Of a stretch of 64,000 nucleotides of DNA, positions 1-35,603 are shown one piece after another. The position numbers were made by a program, and so were the translations under genes. Positions within the stretch are counted from its first letter, which is position 1, and each line of letters opens with the position of its first letter. This DNA comes from an uncultured virus (IMG/VR IMGVR_UViG_3300020182_000024) (Duplodnaviria > Heunggongvirae > Uroviricota > Caudoviricetes). The stretch lies in IMG/VR virus record IMGVR_UViG_3300020182_000024; one strand, given 5' to 3'. The notes under the pieces were generated by a model. It worked only from the letters and a program-made list of their open reading frames with translations. It was not told the origin of the DNA and did not search any database.

Positions 1-56
1 AGCTTATATCTCCGTAACTTAGGTTACATAACTATGCCTGATAATTGAAATAACAT

Positions 57-85
57 TTGACCACTAAGTTATAAAGGTGTATCAT
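57..85 (+). promoter_or_regulatory. sigma70-type promoter
   Basis: TTGACC-17 nt-TATCAT upstream of cassette array A. Confidence 0.6.
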
Positions 86-219
86 AGCATACATAACAAT
101 AAGAGAGATTACTATGATGGAATAGTATTTTACTTATAATCTAATAGGTTATAAAGTTTACTACTGTATTCTATCACGGTAAGTCCTCTTGATTCTGAGT
201 GCCTGTAAGAAAAGTAAAT

Positions 220-378
220 ATGTGGAGTGGGGATGTGTTCTATTTAAAATTAAAGCAGCTTGTGCGTGATGCGGATAAATATACACCTCAAGAAATATCA
301 AACGCACTTAGCAGACTAAAAGAAGTGGCTGACCACCAGCAGTGGGAGCTAACAATGTCTAAAATGGGTGTCTCATGA
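220..378 (+). CDS. small hypothetical protein (52 aa, below ORF-track cutoff)
   Basis: Hand translation MWSGDVFYLKLKQLVRDADKYTPQE...KMGVS; TGA stop lies in the left core of attC-like site A1. Confidence 0.55.
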   Translation: MWSGDVFYLKLKQLVRDADKYTPQEISNALSRLKEVADHQQWELTMSKMGVS

Positions 379-444
379 CCTATATGTAAACTGAGAGGAA
401 CGAAGAATGAGTGACGAGTCAAGTTTGACACCGTTGTTATGTTT
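374..444 (-). mobile_element. attC-like site A1 (left core degenerate, GAC)
   Basis: CATGAC-5nt-TGTAAACT ... AGTTT[G]ACA-5nt-GTTATGTTT; imperfect inverted repeat with an extra G in the right arm. Confidence 0.7.
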
Positions 445-589
445 GCCAACTTTTCAGGCTGCTAGAAGGGCTTGCGGACTTTTTGAGAGGGAGTATATCG
501 GGCAGAACAAGAAAGAACTTTGGGAGTGGGCTGTAAAAACTTCACTGAAAGAGCGTGAGAAAATTGAGCGAGATTTACAGAAAACATAA
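407..589 (+). CDS. cassette-borne hypothetical protein
   Basis: ORF starts inside site A1; bounded by GTTATGTTT (436) and its reverse complement AAACATAAC (582). Confidence 0.7.
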   Translation: MSDESSLTPLLCLPTFQAARRACGLFEREYIGQNKKELWEWAVKTSLKEREKIERDLQKT

Positions 590-669
590 CCTTATTTTTA
601 GCTGCGGCGGTACGCAGCATGAAGTAAAGCAGTTTTATAACCGTCTGCTATAAAATGGTTGTTATGTGT
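582..669 (-). mobile_element. attC-like site A2
   Basis: AAACATAAC ... ATTTTTAGCTGCGG ... CCG[T]CTGCTA[T]AAAAT ... GTTATGTGT hairpin with two extra bases in the right arm. Confidence 0.8.
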
Positions 670-682
670 TTTTTAATTAAGG

Positions 683-880
683 GTGGTAAATATTATGGCG
701 GATAATTGGTTAAGTGTTGAGGATAGTTTACCAGATGACGGTAATTACGAAGTTAAAGTGGTAAATAACGGCAAGGAATTGGTAGCAAAAAGGAGATTGA
801 TTAAAGGGCATTGGTTTGGTGGTTGTAGACCATTTACGGATGGCGAGAAAGTAACGCACTACAAAGCTACTGACACATAA
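683..880 (+). CDS. cassette-borne DUF551-like small protein
   Basis: WLSVEDSLP...VTHY pattern; bounded by GTTATGTGT (661) / ACACATAAC (873). Confidence 0.7.
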   Translation: MVNIMADNWLSVEDSLPDDGNYEVKVVNNGKELVAKRRLIKGHWFGGCRPFTDGEKVTHYKATDT

Positions 881-953
881 CCTAATTGTATGCGGCTACC
901 GAAGCAGCGCGTAGGTAGTCCGAGCGAAGCGACATGACATAGTTGTTATGTGT
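873..953 (-). mobile_element. attC-like site A3
   Basis: ACACATAAC-5nt-TGTATG..GGCTACC..GGTAG[T]CC..GCGAAGC..CAT[G]ACA-5nt-GTTATGTGT. Confidence 0.85.
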
Positions 954-973
954 GAATTACGGGAGATAGAAAG

Positions 974-1204
974 ATGAGTGAAAGAGTTGGAACGCTAAAG
1001 AGCTATGTAGAAGCACCAAAGTGGGCAGCATTTCCAAAGTTTTTAAAAAATACCTGTTTTATGTATGACCTTAAAGTTATCTATATGGATATAGACAAAG
1101 GCTGGATACGTGAAACTGTAAGATTCAAAGTGGAAGGCGGCGAGTCTAATTTACGCAGACTGCAAAAAGCCATAGATATTGGCGTGGAAGAGTACAACAC
1201 ATAA
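974..1204 (+). CDS. cassette-borne hypothetical protein
   Basis: RBS GGAG; bounded by GTTATGTGT (945) / ACACATAAC (1197). Confidence 0.75.
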   Translation: MSERVGTLKSYVEAPKWAAFPKFLKNTCFMYDLKVIYMDIDKGWIRETVRFKVEGGESNLRRLQKAIDIGVEEYNT

Positions 1205-1317
1205 CACTGTAATTATACGTCGTTATTTTGTGTCAGCTTGACGTATAATTACAAAATCATCTTAACAAATACAGTAATAATCAATGGCTTACATAAACAG
1301 ACGTGTTTAATTGCGTC
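1201..1317 (-). mobile_element. attI-like array-terminal site, copy 1
   Basis: Near-identical inverted copy at 21173-21288; 13-bp inverted repeat GTAATTATACGTC/GACGTATAATTAC; IHF consensus AATCAAtggcTTA at 1279-1291; distal GACGTGTTTAATTGCGTC. Confidence 0.65.
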
Positions 1318-7272: not shown

Positions 7273-7341
7273 AAATAACGTTGGTAACACAGGCAACTAA
7301 AGCGAAGCGGAAGTTGTCCTTGTGTTTACCCTTGTTATAAA
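7273..7341 (-). mobile_element. attC-like site B1
   Basis: AAATAAC..GGTAACACAGGCAACT..GCGAAGC..AGTTG[T]CCT[T]GTGTT[T]ACC..GTTATAAA. Confidence 0.8.
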
Positions 7342-7372
7342 TTTTAAATTAAATTAATTAAATTAAAGGTGA

Positions 7373-7681
7373 ATGAATATGGATGATAAACAATTATGGT
7401 TTTGTCCACACACAGGATATACAATCTCTAATGCACAAACGCAACAATACTTAAATAGTGATGATCCTGTTTATATCGAAAGAGCGGAATCCTACTTACC
7501 ATTTTCAACAATAGAAATTCTTAACATTTACATGGACATCTTACGTCAATATAAAGAAGAGTTTGGACACACTATAAGGACTAAATTTATTACTGAGTCT
7601 TACACTGCTGCCAGTAAAGGTGAAATACATCAAGCGTTTCTGGAATCTGGACTTTCTTGTTTATTTCCTCTAAGACACTAA
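7373..7681 (+). CDS. cassette-borne hypothetical protein
   Basis: ORF with AAGGTG RBS between sites B1 and B2. Confidence 0.6.
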   Translation: MNMDDKQLWFCPHTGYTISNAQTQQYLNSDDPVYIERAESYLPFSTIEILNIYMDILRQYKEEFGHTIRTKFITESYTAASKGEIHQAFLESGLSCLFPLRH

Positions 7682-7859
7682 GACAATTTTTAAATTTACC
7701 TTCTACGTAGTTGTTATAATAAGGCTCATTATGACCAGCTGTTAGGAAATGACCATCTAACACATGATCTATACCCTCGACTAGTTTAGCAGCTGGAGTA
7801 TTAGATATTTCTTTTTCAAGTGTCCTTATAATAGTATCAGCGGCAGCTTTAGTAGTCAT
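7590..7859 (-). CDS. cassette-borne hypothetical protein (convergent)
   Basis: GGAGG RBS; overlaps the 3' end of 7373-7681. Confidence 0.6.
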   Translation of the reverse strand: MTTKAAADTIIRTLEKEISNTPAAKLVEGIDHVLDGHFLTAGHNEPYYNNYVEGKFKNCLSVLEEINKKVQIPETLDVFHLYWQQCKTQ

Positions 7860-7915
7860 ATTCCCTCCAAGGGATTATTAAAAGTAGTAAATAGTATCAC
7901 ATCTTACGATGTGGG

Positions 7916-7976
7916 TTTATAACGTTGTAATTAGCGGCTGCGCTTTTTGTAGTCCGCTTGATTTTAATTGTTATGT
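7916..7976 (-). mobile_element. attC-like site B2
   Basis: TTTATAAC..AATTAGCGGCTGC..GTAG[T]CCGCTT[G]ATT..GTTATGT; left core complements the B1 right core GTTATAAA. Confidence 0.8.
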
Positions 7977-8312
7977 AGGAGTATACAAATGAATATACTA
8001 TTCGTCTGTAGTATGGCAGAAGTGAGAAGTAAGACAGCATCTGAATGCCTAGGTTTTGTTTCTGATTATTGTGGAACAGATAAATTATCCGATAGATATA
8101 TTAACCCACTACAAGTAGAATGGGCTGATAGGATAATTTGTATGGAAAACTCACATAGTAATAAAGTTATAGAATTATTCCCTCATTCTAGGAATAAGAT
8201 ACAAGTATGGAATATTCAAGATAGATATGAGTATCTTGATAACACGCTTATCACCATATTAAGAGGTAAGTCAGAGAAATACTTAGATCCCTATGTAACT
8301 AATAAATGGTAA
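7968..8312 (+). CDS. low-molecular-weight protein-tyrosine-phosphatase-like protein (likely start at MNILF)
   Basis: ILFVC-x5-RS-x-TA P-loop; WADRIICME; I-x-D-x-Y. Confidence 0.8.
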   Translation: MLCRSIQMNILFVCSMAEVRSKTASECLGFVSDYCGTDKLSDRYINPLQVEWADRIICMENSHSNKVIELFPHSRNKIQVWNIQDRYEYLDNTLITILRGKSEKYLDPYVTNKW

Positions 8313-15203: not shown

Positions 15204-15311
15204 GCTCTTGTAAGCCTCTCTAAGCTATCCTAATATCACCCTATACTACCCTACAGGGTATACTCTAAAACGCTCTCAGAATGGCTAAAAAGGGGCTTCT
15301 CGAAGGTGTTT
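15204..15311 (+). repeat. dispersed ~108-bp element, copy 2
   Basis: GCTCTTGTAAGCCTCTCTAAG..ACCCTATACTACCCTAC..AAAACGCTCTCAGAATGG..GGCTTCTC. Confidence 0.85.
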
Positions 15312-16476: not shown

Positions 16477-16584
16477 GGCTCTGTAAGCCTCTGTACGGGC
16501 TTGTTAATCTACCCTATACTACCCTACAGGGTATAGTCTAAACGTTGCTTAGAATGCAATCTGAGGTCATATAGAGCTATGTTT
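16477..16584 (+). repeat. dispersed ~108-bp element, copy 3
   Basis: GCTCTGTAAGCCTCTGTACGGGC..ACCCTATACTACCCTACAGGGTA..TAAACG..TTAGAATG..TATGTTT. Confidence 0.85.
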
Positions 16585-17435: not shown

Positions 17436-18185
17436 CCTTGTCTATATTATGTTAGCTTACGCTAACGAAATTAAAGTTTAATACTGTATTCAGTCACTTC
17501 ATCTCTCTTATCTATAGATATAATAGAGCCATCTTTTAAAACAATAGTAGTTAATAATGATTATTAGACAATGATAGTAGTCACTCTCTATATTAACTAC
17601 TTTTATTGTATTAATTATATTGAACAACTCTTCTTCACTTATTTCTTTTATAGTCATAATATTCGCCCTATATTATGTTAGCGTAAGCTAACGAGATTAA
17701 ACTTATTAACATATATTCTATTAATATACATTATAAGAGCATTATTTCATGTATATAATACCTTGTCAATAGCTTATTAGTAATATATCTATATAAGTGT
17801 TATATACAACAATTACTACTATGCTGGTGTTTGAGCTAGCGTTAGCTAGTGAGTATAGCATAACAATATAGGGTATAACAATGTTAGTATATAAAAAGAT
17901 TAAGGGCGGGGGTTCTACCCCTGTCCCGCCTTGACTAAACTATTATTAATAAGCATTTGGTATAATAAACTATTATAGCGTTACTCTGTCACAGTATAAA
18001 TAGATAGCTTACGCTATCGAAACAATGTGACAATATATAAGTATATTATAAATTACTATATAATGATGATAGAATAGACTGTAGAAGTGCAACACTAACT
18101 ATTGGTTATTGAATTATGTATATGATTTAATAGGTAATGGTAATAGATTTTTTTCTATTATTATTATATAGGGAAAAACTTGCGA

Positions 18186-20762: not shown

Positions 20763-20922
20763 TTCTTATAAGCAATAGGGAAAACGCCGCTCATTTATTA
20801 TAAAATAATAAAGGGTTACAAATTCACCCAACACATCTATAAGTTTATATAACTAAAAGTTATAAGCGAATCATCTCTTATTCCAAAAAGGAATATAAAT
20901 TTTTATTATAAAATCTGTGTAA

Positions 20923-21157
20923 ATCCATTTTTCTGTTTTTATATGAAAATACCCATTTGACCAATAGCCTTTTTTCTATATAACCAAAAAGAATAAGTAT
21001 ACCACCCCTTATAACTAGAAGAGATATACATTTTCAATATCAAATCTATTTTATATCCATTTTTGTATAAAAATATGAAAAAGCCCATTTGACTAAATTT
21101 TACTATTAGATATAAATTGAATTTTACATTTTTATATGAAAATCACCGTTTGACTAA
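20923..21157 (+). repeat. three copies of an ATATGAAAA..CCRTTTGACYAA motif
   Basis: Copies at 20941, 21073 and 21134; a fourth at 25519. Confidence 0.75.
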
Positions 21158-21172
21158 ATTTTATAAAGAGTT

Positions 21173-21288
21173 GACGCAATAAAACACGTCAATCTAAATT
21201 TAACTTTTAATATCAACAACTTGTATATCCGCGCGCAAAGATATACGTCAAAGTGACTCAAAATAACGACGTATAATCACAGTGTTAT
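21173..21288 (+). mobile_element. attI-like array-terminal site, copy 2
   Basis: Inverted near-copy of 1201-1317; IHF consensus TATCAAcaacTTG at 21211-21223; ends ...ACAGT-GTT at 21284. Confidence 0.65.
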
Positions 21289-21617
21289 CAGTATAAGTTT
21301 TCACTGTAGAGCGTACCGCCATCCGCGGTGTCGCCTCCAACCCTTCGTATTATCTGCCCCGCAGCTTCGGCAACTTTCCATGCCTCCACTCTACTTAGAA
21401 ACTCTCCTTTCTGGTTAATAAACCCCTGTTCAGATGCAACCCAGCCGTACCTTTCGGCAGCCATCAATTCTTCTTTTTGGTTGTGCATAAATCCATCCCA
21501 GTGCCTAACGCCAATCAACAAATGTTTTGTTGCTAGGTGCTGATTGGCAGCACACACTATTCGCTCACTGATAACAACTTCATCAATTTGACTCATTCCG
21601 CTTCGCTCCATTCTCAA
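21288..21617 (-). CDS. cassette-borne hypothetical phage protein (likely start MSQIDE at 21596)
   Basis: IVCAAN..RHWD..QGF..F.SR.EA..LYSENLY; bounded by GTTATCAGT (21284) / ACTGATAAC (21567). Confidence 0.8.
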   Translation of the reverse strand: MRMERSGMSQIDEVVISERIVCAANQHLATKHLLIGVRHWDGFMHNQKEELMAAERYGWVASEQGFINQKGEFLSRVEAWKVAEAAGQIIRRVGGDTADGGTLYSENLY

Positions 21618-21637
21618 TTTATGTAAAGGTTAGCTGT
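21567..21637 (+). mobile_element. attC-like site C2
   Basis: ACTGATAAC-5nt-CAT[C]AATTTGA..GCTTCGC..TCAATTTATG-5nt-GTTAGCTGT; canonical attC layout on the + strand. Confidence 0.85.
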
Positions 21638-21846
21638 CAAAAGCATTCTTTAAGCCTTTCTTCTAACCCTTCTGCTTCGCTCTCACTTGGTATGCCATCA
21701 ACGACAATTATAGTTCTGTCATCTTGCCACTCATAATCTGAGTAGCCCTCATTTTCCAGCGTATCCTCAATTTGAACCTTTCCGCAAATATTTCCTTCAC
21801 CTACATTTAGCGTGATGTAATATTCTTCTACCTGATAAACTGGCAT
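21637..21846 (-). CDS. cassette-borne acidic hypothetical protein
   Basis: Bounded by GTTAGCTGT (21629) / ACAGCTAAC (21871); AGGAG RBS. Confidence 0.8.
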   Translation of the reverse strand: MPVYQVEEYYITLNVGEGNICGKVQIEDTLENEGYSDYEWQDDRTIIVVDGIPSESEAEGLEERLKECF

Positions 21847-21870
21847 ATCTCAATCTCCTGTTAAATTATT

Positions 21871-21923
21871 ACAGCTAACAACGTAATCGTGCCTGACGTT
21901 TCCCACCTCGCGCGATTAGTAGT
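21871..21923 (+). mobile_element. degenerate attC-like site C3
   Basis: ACAGCTAAC..TAATCG..CGATTA hairpin; distal GTT core missing. Confidence 0.55.
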
Positions 21924-22727
21924 CTAAATACTCAATTACACAACTACCAATCATATTTTCTTTAATCACGGCTTCTGGATTATTGTAACAACCAAAACCC
22001 TCATCACTTGCATCGTTATCATCTTCTACATATTTATCTAATACTTCCGTAAGTACATCGACACAATCAAAAAGCGCATCTAAGTTACCGCTAGTTTCTT
22101 CTAAAAATCTTTCTCTATTAAATCTCATTTTTTCTCCTAGTATTATAACACTCTTACAGCAGCACTCATAAAACTATCTATATTTATGTATATATCATAG
22201 TTCTTAATATAACATACATTATTATAAATGTAAATATCTCTATCCTTATATTTTCCAACTTGTTCCTTACATTTCTCTAATTGTACATCAACAAATTGGG
22301 GAGGTGTAAGTAAGATAGATAATATTAGTAATCTAGACAACAACATGATATAAGAATAATTGAATTGCATAAATACCAGCCAAACCCACTAATCCCCATC
22401 CTAACCAATATAATACTAAACTAGGCTTATGTAAGTCAACTCTTGTAATCATATATCTATCATTATTCCGAAGATAATTAATAAATAATAAAATAGCTAA
22501 TAGTAAGCTACCACCAAACTTAATCCAAATATCTAACATGATTCTTCTCCTAACTGGTTAATTTCAAATAACCCTACTTCCACATCTTCCATCCAGTAGT
22601 GATTTCTATTACGTGACATACTATCTACTATAGCATCTACAGTTAATACACTCTTACTAGCTGTATGGAAGTAGATTTCATCACTTTTAGTGTTGTATGC
22701 AATCCAATATTTGTTATCTTCGTTCAT
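21916..22727 (-). other. four small hypothetical CDS, two hydrophobic
   Basis: ORFs 21916-22128, 22143-22370, 22333-22539, 22533-22727. Confidence 0.7.
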
Positions 22728-25459: not shown

Positions 25460-25566
25460 AATTATTAACTCCTCTATTTAAGTTGCAACCATTATTACAT
25501 ATCCATTTTTGTATGTCAATATGAAAATCCCCGTTTGACTAAAATTAATATAATAGATAATAAGGG

Positions 25567-26286: not shown

Positions 26287-26387
26287 AAGCCCCTGTACGG
26301 ACAAGTAGCTCAAGGGTATGCTACCCTACAGGGTCACACCTAAACGTGCCGTGGTGGGGCTTATATGGCGTTCTCAGTGGTATGTTT
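26281..26387 (+). repeat. dispersed ~108-bp element, copy 6
   Basis: AAGCCCCTGTACGG..CTACCCTACAGGGT..TAAACG..TATGGCGTTCTCAGTGGTATGTTT. Confidence 0.75.
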
Positions 26388-31802: not shown

Positions 31803-34800
31803 ATGACTAACATTACAGGAGACATAGAGACTAATAATCTACTCAATAATGAGTCTATTAATTACAATGCTAGCCCATATTGTCTTAAAGATACTTATAA
31901 GACCCACTGTATTGTATTAGAGATACATGAGACTAATGAGATTATAGCCTTCTACGATGGCGATAAGTATATACTAGATGGTCGCGAGTTTATTGAGAAA
32001 GATGATAAATATACTTATGAGCTAAAAGATTATGAACCTATTAAATATACACATTATCAATTAGGTGAGTTCCCTAATTATATTAAAGGTATTAAGGATT
32101 TAAATAAGGTTATATTTCACAATGGGATTAACTTCGATTTTCTCTCTTGTAAACTTTATTTTGATATGGATTATACTATTGGTGGTTTAGATGGAGAGTC
32201 TGATACATGGTGTGGTAGAGAAGTAGATATTGTAGATACAATGATCTTATCTAAAACATTAAATAGTGATCGTTTCTGTGGGCATAGCTTAGATAAGTTA
32301 TCTAAAGTGGCTGGAGGTGCTGAAAAGATAGATTTTAGACCCCATGTACCTAAAAAAGATATGTACAATACATTTGCAGCGGATATGTTATACTATAACA
32401 TTTTTGATGTGAAGTCTAACACAGATGTATATAATTACTTAGAACATGAACGTACACAGGATGGTTGGGATTGGGATGCAGCTATTAGATTAGAGAAGAA
32501 AACGGCTGAAATAGTAACTCGCTCATCGCATCGTGGGTTCAAGTTTGATGTGAAGTTGGCTGAAAAGTGTATACATGAGTTAGACGAACTTATGTCAGAA
32601 CGTAGACAACGTGTAGAACCATTACTCCCACCTCGTGCAGCTACTAAGAAGTTCCTTAAAGAACATACACCTCCAGCATCACAAGTATTGACTAAGGATA
32701 TTACACTACCTAAGAAATTCTTTAATAAGGATTTAAGTTTATCTAAGACAGCTACATCTTGGTTAGAGAAGTGGGATGGTGAATATGATGATGATAAGAA
32801 GATTATTAAAGTGCAGGGTAACGTATTAAAGCGTGATACAACTACAGGCTTTCCAGAGGTAGCATTCACACAACAAACTGTAGCAGCACACATGGTTAAT
32901 TTTGTTAATAAACATAATGGTGTTATTAATGAAGATGATATGACAGTGGAGTTATTTGGAGAGGTTTATAAGCTGCCTGTTGCTGTTGAGCCGTTGAAGA
33001 CGACTATGGTTGCTGAAATAAAAAATACAACTCATATTAAAGAGTGGCTGGTATCTTTAGGATGGCAACCATCTGAATATAAGATGAAGGATATTACTCT
33101 AAAGTCTGGTACTAAGATTAAACGTGACTCAGAAGATTTAGAAAAAGCTGTAGATAGATATATTGCTGAAACACTAGAGTCAGAGTTTTGTAAAGATAGA
33201 TGCGCCCAGTTAAAAGCTAGACCTACTGAACATAGCCTGAAACGTATTATTATGGAAAAAGCTAATAAGTATGGATGTAAAGTATTGACCAGCCCCTCCT
33301 TCACAATCGGACAGGAAAAAGAACTATGTAAGGATTTAGAGCGTATCGCTGAGAGATTTCCTTATGTACAAGATATTGTAGAATACCTTACATATAAACA
33401 TAGACGTTCAAGTATTTTAGGCGGAGATGTAGATTGGGATAGTGATGAAGAGCCTGAAAAAGGGTATATGGCTCATGTAAGGGATGATGGCAGGATAGCT
33501 GCACCAGCAGATACTCTAGGTGCTGCAACAGGAAGAATGCGCCATAAGAATATTGTTAATGTCCCAAGAGTTTCTTCTCTATATGGCAAGGAAATGAGAT
33601 CCTTGTTTAAAGTAGAAGACGATTGCTTAAAAATTGGAAGCGATATGGCTAGTTTAGAAGCACGTCTTGAGGGACATTATTGTCATAAATATGATGTTGA
33701 AGGTAAACCTTATTGTAAATCCTTAACCTTATCTCAACCTAATGATGTACACTCATTGACTGCTAATTATATATCAAGTATTATAGGTAAAGATTTCTCA
33801 AGATCTAATGCTAAATCTGTTAAATACTCGTGCCTACCTGTAGAAAATACAGAGGTTCTGACAACTTCTGGTTGGAAGTATTATCATGAGTTATGTGAAG
33901 GAGATGAGATACTTAATTATAATGTTGACACGAATATGATCGAGAGGGATTTTATTTCTAAACTCCATTATTATAAAGATGCAGAAATAATGAAAGTAAG
34001 TAATAAGTTTTATGGTTTTGAAGCAACACCTGATCATAGATGGTATGGTTGGAATAGGAGAATGAAGGGTAGTGGAAAGACTGCAACTCGCTTCAATGAG
34101 TATAAATTCTTTACAACGGAAGAGATGAACTCCGAATATAATATTTTATGTGCAGCTCCCTATAAGGGTGGATCGTCTATTATTACCAAAGATGAGAGTG
34201 CATTAGTAGCTTGGCTATTATCAGATGGTTACTATTTCTGGTCAGATAGGAGTGAGACTACCTCTGCGAGTAATGGCAGACTTAAAGGGATAGTTGCCAG
34301 TATATCTCAATCTAAGAATAAGTTTTATAAAGAAGTTGAACAAATATTGGGAATTAATAATATAGAGTATACTAAAGATTTCTATAAGAAAGATAATGGA
34401 AATGATGTTTATACTTATAGATTAAAAAGTAATGATATAAGAGATTTTATGGGTAGAGTTGTAAAATCTAGGAATCAGAAACATGAAGTAGATTGGGCAT
34501 CTTGGGTACTCGATTTAAGTAAGGATGCTTTAGATTCTTTTATCTATAATTTCTGGTTAGCAGATGGTGCATCTAAAGGGATGGAATTTAATAAATGCAC
34601 TAAAATATATCAAAATGAAGGGAAAATAGCGGATGCAGTTGCCTTGGCACTTTACTTACAAGGCAATCGGATATCTATTACTGATCATACACAAGAAAAG
34701 AAATGTAAGAATATTACTCAATTAAGGTTGTCCCATTTTGGCATGGGAAATACTAAAAAAGAGATGATAGAGAATAAGGATGTATTTTGTTTAACTGCAC

Positions 34801-35603
34801 CTAATAGTACTTTTATATTTAGACAAAACGGATTTATAAGTATTACAGGTAATTGCACATTTGGAGGAGGTGCGTCTAAGATTGCTAATATTATTGGAGA
34901 ATCTAGTTCTGTGGGTGAGATAGTTTTTGATTCATTTTGGAAATCAGCGGCACCCCTTACTAAGTTAAAGGTTGCTGTAGAGAAATGGTGGGAAGCTAAA
35001 GGCAATAGGAAGTTTATAAAGGGCTTAGATGGGAGGCAAGTTAGAACTAGATTTAAACATGCACTATTAAATTCTTTGTTACAGTCAGGTGGTGCTATTG
35101 CTACTAAAACTATGGCTGTATTTCACGATCAGTTATTAACAGAAGAAGGATTACAAATTGACTTCTTTAAAGATGATTGGAAGAATACAGAGTTTAATCA
35201 ACTTATGATTATTATGCATGATGAGATAGCATTAGAGGAGTCTAAAAGTAGGTTCAAATTTAAAAAGTTTAACAGTGAAGAAGATGCCTTGACATTCTCT
35301 AAAGAAGATGATAGAATATGGAGTGAGGTAATAGAAGGTAAAAATAATACTTACTTTCTTAATATTGACGGTATAAACGATTCTCAATTATATAAGACTA
35401 AAGGAGAGGCTAAGTCTGCATTTAAAAGGATAGAAGGTAAGTGTAAGGTGTTACCATCTATAGGAAATTTGTATTATTTAGCACATACTAAAGCTGGAGA
35501 GTTAATATCTAAAGCTGTGGAGATGACTAATAATCATTATAAACTAAAAGTACCCTTGGAGATGGGGTATGCTGTGGGAGTGTCGTGGGCTGATACACAT
35601 TAA
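31803..35603 (+). CDS. family A DNA polymerase with 3'-5' exonuclease and intein
   Basis: DIET, HNGINFD, TGRMRH, DMASLEAR, RSNAKSVKYS|CTFG, LNSLLQS, MHDE, SWADTH. Confidence 0.95.
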   Translation: MTNITGDIETNNLLNNESINYNASPYCLKDTYKTHCIVLEIHETNEIIAFYDGDKYILDGREFIEKDDKYTYELKDYEPIKYTHYQLGEFPNYIKGIKDLNKVIFHNGINFDFLSCKLYFDMDYTIGGLDGESDTWCGREVDIVDTMILSKTLNSDRFCGHSLDKLSKVAGGAEKIDFRPHVPKKDMYNTFAADMLYYNIFDVKSNTDVYNYLEHERTQDGWDWDAAIRLEKKTAEIVTRSSHRGFKFDVKLAEKCIHELDELMSERRQRVEPLLPPRAATKKFLKEHTPPASQVLTKDITLPKKFFNKDLSLSKTATSWLEKWDGEYDDDKKIIKVQGNVLKRDTTTGFPEVAFTQQTVAAHMVNFVNKHNGVINEDDMTVELFGEVYKLPVAVEPLKTTMVAEIKNTTHIKEWLVSLGWQPSEYKMKDITLKSGTKIKRDSEDLEKAVDRYIAETLESEFCKDRCAQLKARPTEHSLKRIIMEKANKYGCKVLTSPSFTIGQEKELCKDLERIAERFPYVQDIVEYLTYKHRRSSILGGDVDWDSDEEPEKGYMAHVRDDGRIAAPADTLGAATGRMRHKNIVNVPRVSSLYGKEMRSLFKVEDDCLKIGSDMASLEARLEGHYCHKYDVEGKPYCKSLTLSQPNDVHSLTANYISSIIGKDFSRSNAKSVKYSCLPVENTEVLTTSGWKYYHELCEGDEILNYNVDTNMIERDFISKLHYYKDAEIMKVSNKFYGFEATPDHRWYGWNRRMKGSGKTATRFNEYKFFTTEEMNSEYNILCAAPYKGGSSIITKDESALVAWLLSDGYYFWSDRSETTSASNGRLKGIVASISQSKNKFYKEVEQILGINNIEYTKDFYKKDNGNDVYTYRLKSNDIRDFMGRVVKSRNQKHEVDWASWVLDLSKDALDSFIYNFWLADGASKGMEFNKCTKIYQNEGKIADAVALALYLQGNRISITDHTQEKKCKNITQLRLSHFGMGNTKKEMIENKDVFCLTAPNSTFIFRQNGFISITGNCTFGGGASKIANIIGESSSVGEIVFDSFWKSAAPLTKLKVAVEKWWEAKGNRKFIKGLDGRQVRTRFKHALLNSLLQSGGAIATKTMAVFHDQLLTEEGLQIDFFKDDWKNTEFNQLMIIMHDEIALEESKSRFKFKKFNSEEDALTFSKEDDRIWSEVIEGKNNTYFLNIDGINDSQLYKTKGEAKSAFKRIEGKCKVLPSIGNLYYLAHTKAGELISKAVEMTNNHYKLKVPLEMGYAVGVSWADTH
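33831..34853 (+). mobile_element. intein (341 aa) with LAGLIDADG-type motifs
   Basis: CLPVENTEVLTTSGW..TPDH..WLLSDG..FWLADG..VFCLT..ITGN followed by Cys+1. Confidence 0.93.

Follow-up and report, generated by a model that had tools for sequence, protein, structure and literature searches.

Putative integrase-less attC clusters of a marine phage in which sites appear to precede their genes and occasionally contain the gene start

Clusters of recombination-site-like elements in the phage DNA analysed here (a stretch of 64,000 nucleotides, hereafter the window) are judged from their sequence to be integron-type attC sites without an integrase (CALIN), and it is probable that their coding strand is the recombinogenic bottom strand, so that each site would belong to the gene behind it. 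In the textbook integron cassette, a gene lacking a promoter has its own attC behind it and is read from a promoter in the platform. The mobile unit proposed for the window would instead extend from the C of a 5′ box (xxxTAA|C) through the site body, the 3′ box (GTTAxxx) and a short leader into the ORF, and would end with the ORF's own stop codon, supplied by the TAA of the following 5′ box. With the site thus assigned to the gene behind it, the start of that gene could drift into the site. In two genes, ORF407 and a gene of array C, the SD sequence and ATG would thus occupy the apical part of a site (A1 and C2, respectively), and the first 7–10 codons would be made up of its 3′ arm, spacer, and GTT box. 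The basis for this reading is the layout of the sites, the complementarity of their boxes, the homology of N-terminal codons, and the positions of a breakpoint and of the array ends.

The window derives from a lytic marine myovirus. A PHROG scan of 99 of the 117 ORFs of at least 55 aa names ribonucleotide reductase, DNA polymerase, and primase-helicase as well as tail sheath, baseplate, tape measure, holin, and endolysin, and no scanned ORF matched an integron integrase family. A search with TIGR02249 likewise gave no integrase match in four phage fragments, a result that says little given that the fragments are 24–56% complete. The closest named phage is distant (sheath 33% identical to that of an Alteromonas phage), the nearest relative record (G001) has neither array region, and no viral relatives were found for the protein flanking array C. 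Rfam gave no match in the window at gathering score. Overall GC content is about 33%, from which positions 401–1200 (40–42%) and 21201–22000 (39–44%) stand out.

The sites share a layout of a 7-nt box ending in AAC, a 5-nt spacer, an imperfect stem, a loop, a second 5-nt spacer, and a box starting with GTT, and they are grouped in clusters of three to four in 346–1255, two in 7273–7976, and two to three in 21210–21925. At least two attC-like sites therefore lie close together with no integrase among the 99 of 117 ORFs scanned, as in the definition of CALIN. Complete sites are A2 (584–667), A3 (875–951), B1 (7273–7340), and B2 (7917–7976) on the plus strand and C2 (21636–21569) on the minus strand. 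A1 (346–442, plus strand) is degenerate, C1 (21873–21925, minus strand) at the left end of array C keeps its 3′ half only, and A4 and C3 represent a different, shared element. Inverted boxes of the form xxxTAAC and GTTAxxx are present in A1, A2, A3, B1, B2, and C2, with the R/Y pattern of the attC consensus kept only roughly (ACATAAC/GTTATGT), and spacers of about 5 nt were read as CTTAT/TGGTT in A2, CTAAT/TAGTT in A3, CTTTA/AAGTT in C2, and GTTGG/CCCTT in B1. The 3′ box of C1 is GTTAGCT with its G at 21879; in place of a 5′ box it has ..TTAGA|C, which falls within the last part of a phage ORF.

A2, which belongs to a repeated family in metagenome contigs, is followed by a cassette ORF with weak DUF551 likeness (695–880, plus strand) that starts 28 nt past the A2 box and has its stop TAA in the 5′ box of A3; A3 is followed by a 76-aa cassette ORF (974–1204, plus strand) whose stop TAA (1202–1204) lies at AA|C. 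B1 lies upstream of ORF 7380–7681, B2 lies directly upstream of an SD and an ATG at 7990, and a 69-aa cassette ORF with its own SD (21637–21846, minus strand) begins 26 nt past the C1 box.

ORF407 (407–589, plus strand; 60 aa, beginning MSDESSLTPLLC, with 10 relatives detected by HMMER) departs from this arrangement. As the preliminary description had noted, its ribosome-binding site and start codon lie inside A1, with GAGG at 395–398, 8 nt before the ATG at 407–409, and both between the 5′ box GAGCTAAC (346–353, cleavage point AA|C at 352|353) and the 3′ box GTTATGT (436–442). An in-frame TGA at 392–394 makes this ATG the first possible start, and beyond 407 the frame offers only TTG codons, none of them with an SD. 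The reading through the GTT core that had been described also holds: ORF407 crosses GTTGTTATGT (433–442) as CCG TTG TTA TGT TTG, that is P-L-L-C-L, and it ends at 587–589 on the TAA contained in the 5′ box that follows, ACATAA|C. This 10-mer occurs exactly at 433–442, 658–667, and 942–951, and with up to one mismatch it has 14 matches in the window against 6.6 expected. The database entry for the ORF407 product (P0121) has the identical start, which reflects a gene caller's choice only. More informative is homology within the codons in question. BLASTP aligned ORF407 with database protein P0122 from residue 3 (ESSLTPLLCLP against ESSFTGLLTLP, covering residues 3–13) and with P0123 from residue 7 (covering residues 7–13); the N-terminal domain of P0122 is a zinc ribbon that recurs in locus L007, so the shared stretch would be translated in P0122. 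When P0122 served as the query, L007 and two weak loci were recovered. Because of these alignments and the apparently translated zinc-ribbon protein, the codons of ORF407 before G|TT (residues 3–13, from the 3′ arm and box) are predicted to be part of the gene. Two short relatives, P0126 and P0127, begin only where ORF407 has residue 14, just past the box.

The second gene of this kind, the array C gene (21288–21609, minus strand; 102 aa, PF26092/phrog_839), had equally been placed with its start inside C2, and this was borne out. C2 is bounded by the 5′ box CAGCTAAC (21636–21629) and the 3′ box GTTATCA (21575–21569) and was read by eye as a 5′ arm (21623–21614), a loop (21613–21592), a 3′ arm (21591–21581) with an extra G at 21584 (position 16), and a spacer (21580–21576). 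GGAG (21609–21606) precedes the ATG (21596–21594) with a spacing of 9 nt, and the ATG lies in the 22-nt apical loop, 2 nt before the 3′ arm; from there the gene reads GTT GTT ATC across the box at 21575. The database entry (P0001) again has the identical start, and again this records the choice of a gene caller. Of 543 relatives, 33 sequences were aligned; the common core starts at a nearly invariant R12, N-terminal extensions of 0–20 residues are common, and most relatives start one to three residues ahead of R12. No ATG, GTG, or TTG codon lies between the C2 box and R12, and a start at the GTG of V14 would drop R12. One relative, P0003, has VVISE in common with the array C gene.

Starts of this type are infrequent. 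Among 16 units read, three start before the 3′ box, one has its ATG in the box, and 12 start 15–35 nt past it with an SD of their own, so a start inside the site is an exception that a site-first layout allows and not the rule. Other examples come from metagenome loci: contig L054 contains a unit encoding a 105-aa signal-peptide protein whose ATG precedes the unit's box by 50 nt, this box (GTTAGCTGC) being read as L-L-A in that gene, and the fourth unit and last cassette of L006 (1270–1290) has its ATG inside the 3′ box (GTT ATG AGT AAG ATG). A second ATG follows three codons past the one in the L006 box. A3 also carries an ATG at the corresponding position, where a stop closes the frame after two codons. 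In the literature we found no account of genes starting in phage attC sites or of coding on the bottom strand, which is no proof of absence.

The two sites that contain gene starts are also the weakest folders. Single-stranded DNA folds compared with shuffles gave paired z values of -1.8/-2.35 for A2, -1.15/-0.59 for A3, -0.22/+0.01 for A1, and +0.78/+1.17 for C2 (box-delimited, -0.22 for A1 and +0.78 for C2), and as RNA neither A1 (z -0.22) nor C2 (z +0.39) folded better than chance. Minimum free energy folds did not recover the AT-rich C2 stem drawn by eye, and A1 is off the attC pattern in its spacers (2 nt vs 5 nt) and atypical in having its unpaired bases on the 5′ arm. The label of hairpin is thus weakly founded for A1 and C2. 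Better than shuffles were A2, A4 (z -3.3), and B1 (RNA z -2.39). Translation is predicted to start at 407 and 21596, and the weakened hairpins may be the price of carrying a start site.

The strand on which the sites would recombine can be read from their asymmetry. In the accessible part of Nivina (2016), the integrase is described as cleaving at AAC of the R′ box on the bottom strand of attC, a strand of the form 5′-RYYYAA|C ... L″ with extra-helical bases ... GTTRRRY-3′, purine-rich with GAA loops, whose extra-helical bases (G16, then 20–24) lie near L″ on the other arm. The coding strand of the phage sites has its extra bases in the 3′ arm, with G16 in A3 and C2, a further extra T on the 3′ arm of A3, and T16, T21, and T24 in B1, and its loops are purine-rich and contain GCGAAGC. 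A single-base bulge of the 3′ arm at position 16 or 17 was seen in 13 of 15 well-folding sites selected by hand among the matches listed, after regular-expression hits within genes, alternative starts that overlapped one another, and folds with multiloops (A2 and some others) had been dropped. By the published rule, the extra-helical bases and purine-rich loops would make the coding strand the attC bottom strand, with crossover at AA|C of the 5′ box.

A tested precedent provides a control. Five of six virulent-phage attC sites were recombined by IntI1, the recombined sites being those of H101 and two other phages, with bottom strands better than top strands, and the forward primers of Table S3, which carry bottom strands, include an aadA7 control with G16 and T23 (Qi 2023, PMC9892861, accessible parts). 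Two of the PH101 primer sequences match the minus strand of Pseudoalteromonas phage H101 (NC_029094) at 75921–75974 and 76531–76583, and all 12 annotated genes in 74500–79500 of that genome are on the minus strand, which argues that the genes of H101 also lie on the attC bottom strand.

Comparative evidence on the unit boundary comes chiefly from L054, a 6.5-kb metagenome contig that is 100% identical to window 1–884 and, past the A3 5′ box CACATAAC (875–881) and CTA, continues with a different unit. The homology break (881–884) thus lies at the 5′ box and not at G|TT 945. As the same upstream cassette is joined to two site bodies, one in the window and one in L054, the body appears to belong to, and to travel with, the downstream gene. 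This clean breakpoint is one event, and its junction also occurs as a loose end in run X2, possibly from the same population. A duplicated module in the related phage L002 begins with a site body and ends in GTGTTTATAA|C. In metagenome contigs, the sites belong to a repeated family found with numerous flanks to either side, for which reason counts of site–gene linkage are weak evidence, and left array ends are irregular. No joints, and so no excised or deleted forms, were seen in metagenome contigs, and no bacterial donor was found, a scan with the 3′ half of A2 having given two matches that by reading are due to chance.

The boxes of each unit are complementary over 9 nt in five of five window units (436/590, the A1 3′ box with the next 5′ box, 661/881, 945/1205, 21879/21629, and 21575/21284) and over at least 9 nt in 13 box pairs of L003, L005, L006, and L054, although such pairs are not rare in this AT-rich window (22 found vs about 14 in shuffles). 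Complementary unit ends are expected if both once formed one site in a circle, which fits either boundary model.

It had been argued that a crossover at the near G|TT would cut both genes off from their SD and ATG, that an exchange at the far AA|C keeps start and gene together, and that the recombination hairpin doubles as a translation leader. The geometry of the sites bears out the first point, and the boundary at AA|C is favoured by the side of the extra bases, H101, the L054 breakpoint, and the array ends. It would, however, be no unusual crossover but ordinary bottom-strand cleavage at AA|C; what seems reversed is the orientation of the genes, which would lie on the bottom strand, each with its site ahead of it. 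As an argument for the boundary, the gene starts hold geometrically and rest on a minority of units, and the role of the hairpin as leader is at most a possibility, with A1 and C2 the weakest folders and 12 of 16 units starting past the box with their own SD.

The right-hand ends of the arrays are marked by a shared element of about 110–130 nt that closes arrays in unrelated phages and consists of a perfect 14-bp hairpin followed by the terminator-like GACGTGTTTWATYGCGTC. Six different last cassettes (window A, window C, L003, L005, L006, and L054) end in xxTAA|C and continue into this element in the order CACTGTRATTATACGTC...GACGTATA...GACGTGTTTWATYGCGTC, and the genes that follow it differ in each phage. 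The A type (1205–1317, plus strand; z -3.3) has the hairpin TGTAATTATACGTC/GACGTATAATTACA and then the terminator-like GACGTGTTTAATTGCGTC, and the C type (21173–21284, minus strand) ends in the terminator-like hairpin TTGACGTGTTTTATTGCGTCAA. L005, which has about 110 nt in common with window 1205–1317, is a lambdoid-type phage with an SSB gene. The element scores as terminator-like. A conserved GTT box is missing from it, and the array ends therefore cannot be accounted for by a boundary at G|TT. Of 43 loci from a metagenome scan with the element, 38 matched by chance; the other five carried the hairpin and the second motif, and of these only L054 was new. A pattern scan of genome contigs gave 0 matches, and the element is absent from H101 and from the records of L001 and L002. 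We would only tentatively extend these observations to marine phages with inverted integrase-less cassettes as a type, in which the bottom strand would be the mRNA strand, the site would form the 5′ leader and sometimes the start site, units would end at TAA|C, and the conserved end element of 110–130 nt, common to unrelated myovirus-like and lambdoid-like phages, might be both insertion point (the counterpart of attI) and terminator.

Regulatory hairpins offer another way to account for these sites. Lytic phages of the T4 type carry promoter-early stem-loop cassettes, in which small accessory genes in plastic genome regions are flanked by conserved hairpin-bearing leaders and for which shuffling by homologous or micro-homology recombination has been proposed. 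The window resembles these in its small accessory genes with conserved hairpin-bearing leaders, and its sites could likewise be regulatory or structural 5′-leader hairpins whose units are shuffled at the boxes by such recombination with no integrase involved. B1 forms a strong RNA hairpin; it and sites X, Y, and Z are syntenic in three related phages, where they follow promoter-like sequences (ahead of B1 by eye, and ahead of the sites in L001 and L002), and the irregular left ends, the terminator-like score of the end element, and the lack of an integrase among the 99 scanned ORFs and in the four phage fragments suit this explanation as well. No promoter-like sequence was found before A1–A3 or C1–C2. 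To our knowledge, neither AAC/GTT boxes nor position-16 bulges occur in T4-type stem-loop cassettes, and the match to attC is detailed (7-nt AAC/GTT boxes, 5-nt spacers, bulges at 16 and 20–24, GAA loops). Each unit's boxes are complementary over 9 nt, as expected from one circle site, and IntI1 was able to recombine closely similar sites of H101 (Qi 2023, PMC9892861), so that we regard leader hairpins as an unlikely explanation.

The units could also be ordinary cassettes with their own attC behind them and a crossover near G|TT, the true starts lying past the box and the upstream ATGs being chance run-ins chosen by gene callers. P0126 and P0127, which begin at the residue-14 position of ORF407, and the PF26092 relatives, most of which begin one to three residues ahead of R12, speak for such starts, and the ATG of A3 with its early stop suggests that an ATG at this place is partly a feature of the site. 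A stop in xxxTAAC is typical of ordinary cassettes too, so the layout of the primary sequence alone cannot separate the two models. Against ordinary cassettes it counts that the array C gene would have no usable start past the box unless R12 were lost, that ORF407 would be left with TTG codons lacking an SD, that protein alignments with relatives include its codons ahead of G|TT, and that the L054 breakpoint at the 5′ box, the extra-base side, and the H101 control all point the other way; we consider ordinary cassettes a poor fit and improbable. Ordinary cassettes without start signals might otherwise rely on an SD and ATG supplied by the attC of the preceding cassette; a translation initiation region is missing from about 20% of cassettes, and ORF-11 in attI1 and short ORFs in attC help the following cassette to be translated (PMC8876359, accessible part). 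Borrowed codons would be unrelated to the gene, yet residues 3–13 of ORF407 match relatives and the array C gene has VVISE in common with P0003, and the L054 breakpoint and strand evidence are also against borrowing, which makes this explanation very improbable. The preferred reading, with site and downstream gene as one unit, would in addition have a host integron integrase make the exchanges.

Integrase-less attC clusters in virulent phages have been reported before, for example in H101/PH101 (Qi 2023, PMC9892861). Like H101, the window represents a lytic myovirus with no integrase and a coding strand that would be the bottom strand, and its short sites (xATAAC...GCGTAGCG...TTGTTAT) lie between small genes near ribonucleotide reductase and endolysin; the H101 sites lie between these two genes, as array B does in the window. 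Sites ahead of genes, starts inside sites, and an array-terminal element are not discussed in the accessible parts of that paper (Qi 2023, PMC9892861). With ordinary integron cassettes, the window arrays have in common the AAC/GTT boxes, the stop often in xxxTAAC, the complementary unit ends, and the occurrence in arrays. They differ in the absence of attI, intI, and Pc, in ORFs that appear to lie on the bottom strand, and in site bodies that appear to go with the gene behind them; ordinary cassettes have the ORF on the top strand and their own attC downstream, and neither the strand features nor the L054 breakpoint agree with this. Start signals inside a recombination site recall ORF-11 of attI1 and the short ORFs of attC, but there a separate short ORF couples translation, whereas in the window the cassette gene itself would start in the site and its first codons would be the 3′ arm and box (PMC8876359, accessible part).

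If phage sites do precede genes on the recombined strand, such units would stay silent, or be antisense, once a bacterial integron had captured them, and cassettes facing the promoter were not observed in integrons according to the accessible part of Nivina (2016). Unit boundaries given by standard software would then be off by one site, and coding and translation could constrain the recombination sites. The shared array-end element offers a handle for finding such arrays in viromes.

Several minor observations concern the surroundings of the arrays. Window 1–215 is non-coding and conserved in related phages (L001 4540–4770 and the upstream part of L054, which also has a tRNA gene and more structured-looking sequence). 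Directly after this stretch, an HNH/AP2-type endonuclease gene of L001 takes the place of ORF 220–378 of the window. That ORF has no box upstream; homology to L001 ends near 216–220, and one metagenome contig diverges at 216. ORF 220–378 reaches into the A1 body, ending 25 nt beyond AA|C (352|353), and its last 8–9 codons and stop would therefore belong to the next unit. The duplicated module of L002 (5052–5725 and 10513–11170) consists of a site, a small hydrophobic peptide gene, and a minus-strand 140-aa gene, and the end of the latter (...GGGATTATTAAA..GTTTATAAC) is also found at window 7860–7923. The DNA polymerase ORF (31803–35603, 1266 aa) has its polymerase matches in two separate stretches, which could reflect an insertion, for instance of an intein. 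Three kinds of repeats were noted: a 54-nt repeat (ATATGAAAA...CCCATTTGAC, family D1) with four copies in window 20915–21161 and 25493–25546, in AT-rich intergenic DNA adjoining array C; a box-like and probably unrelated repeat with the 16-nt palindrome GTTAGCTTACGCTAAC in two copies (17442–17478 and 17668–17704); and a 61-nt repeat (family D3) with the palindrome TACCCTACAGGGTA in three copies (15212–15272, 16485–16545, and 26287–26347).
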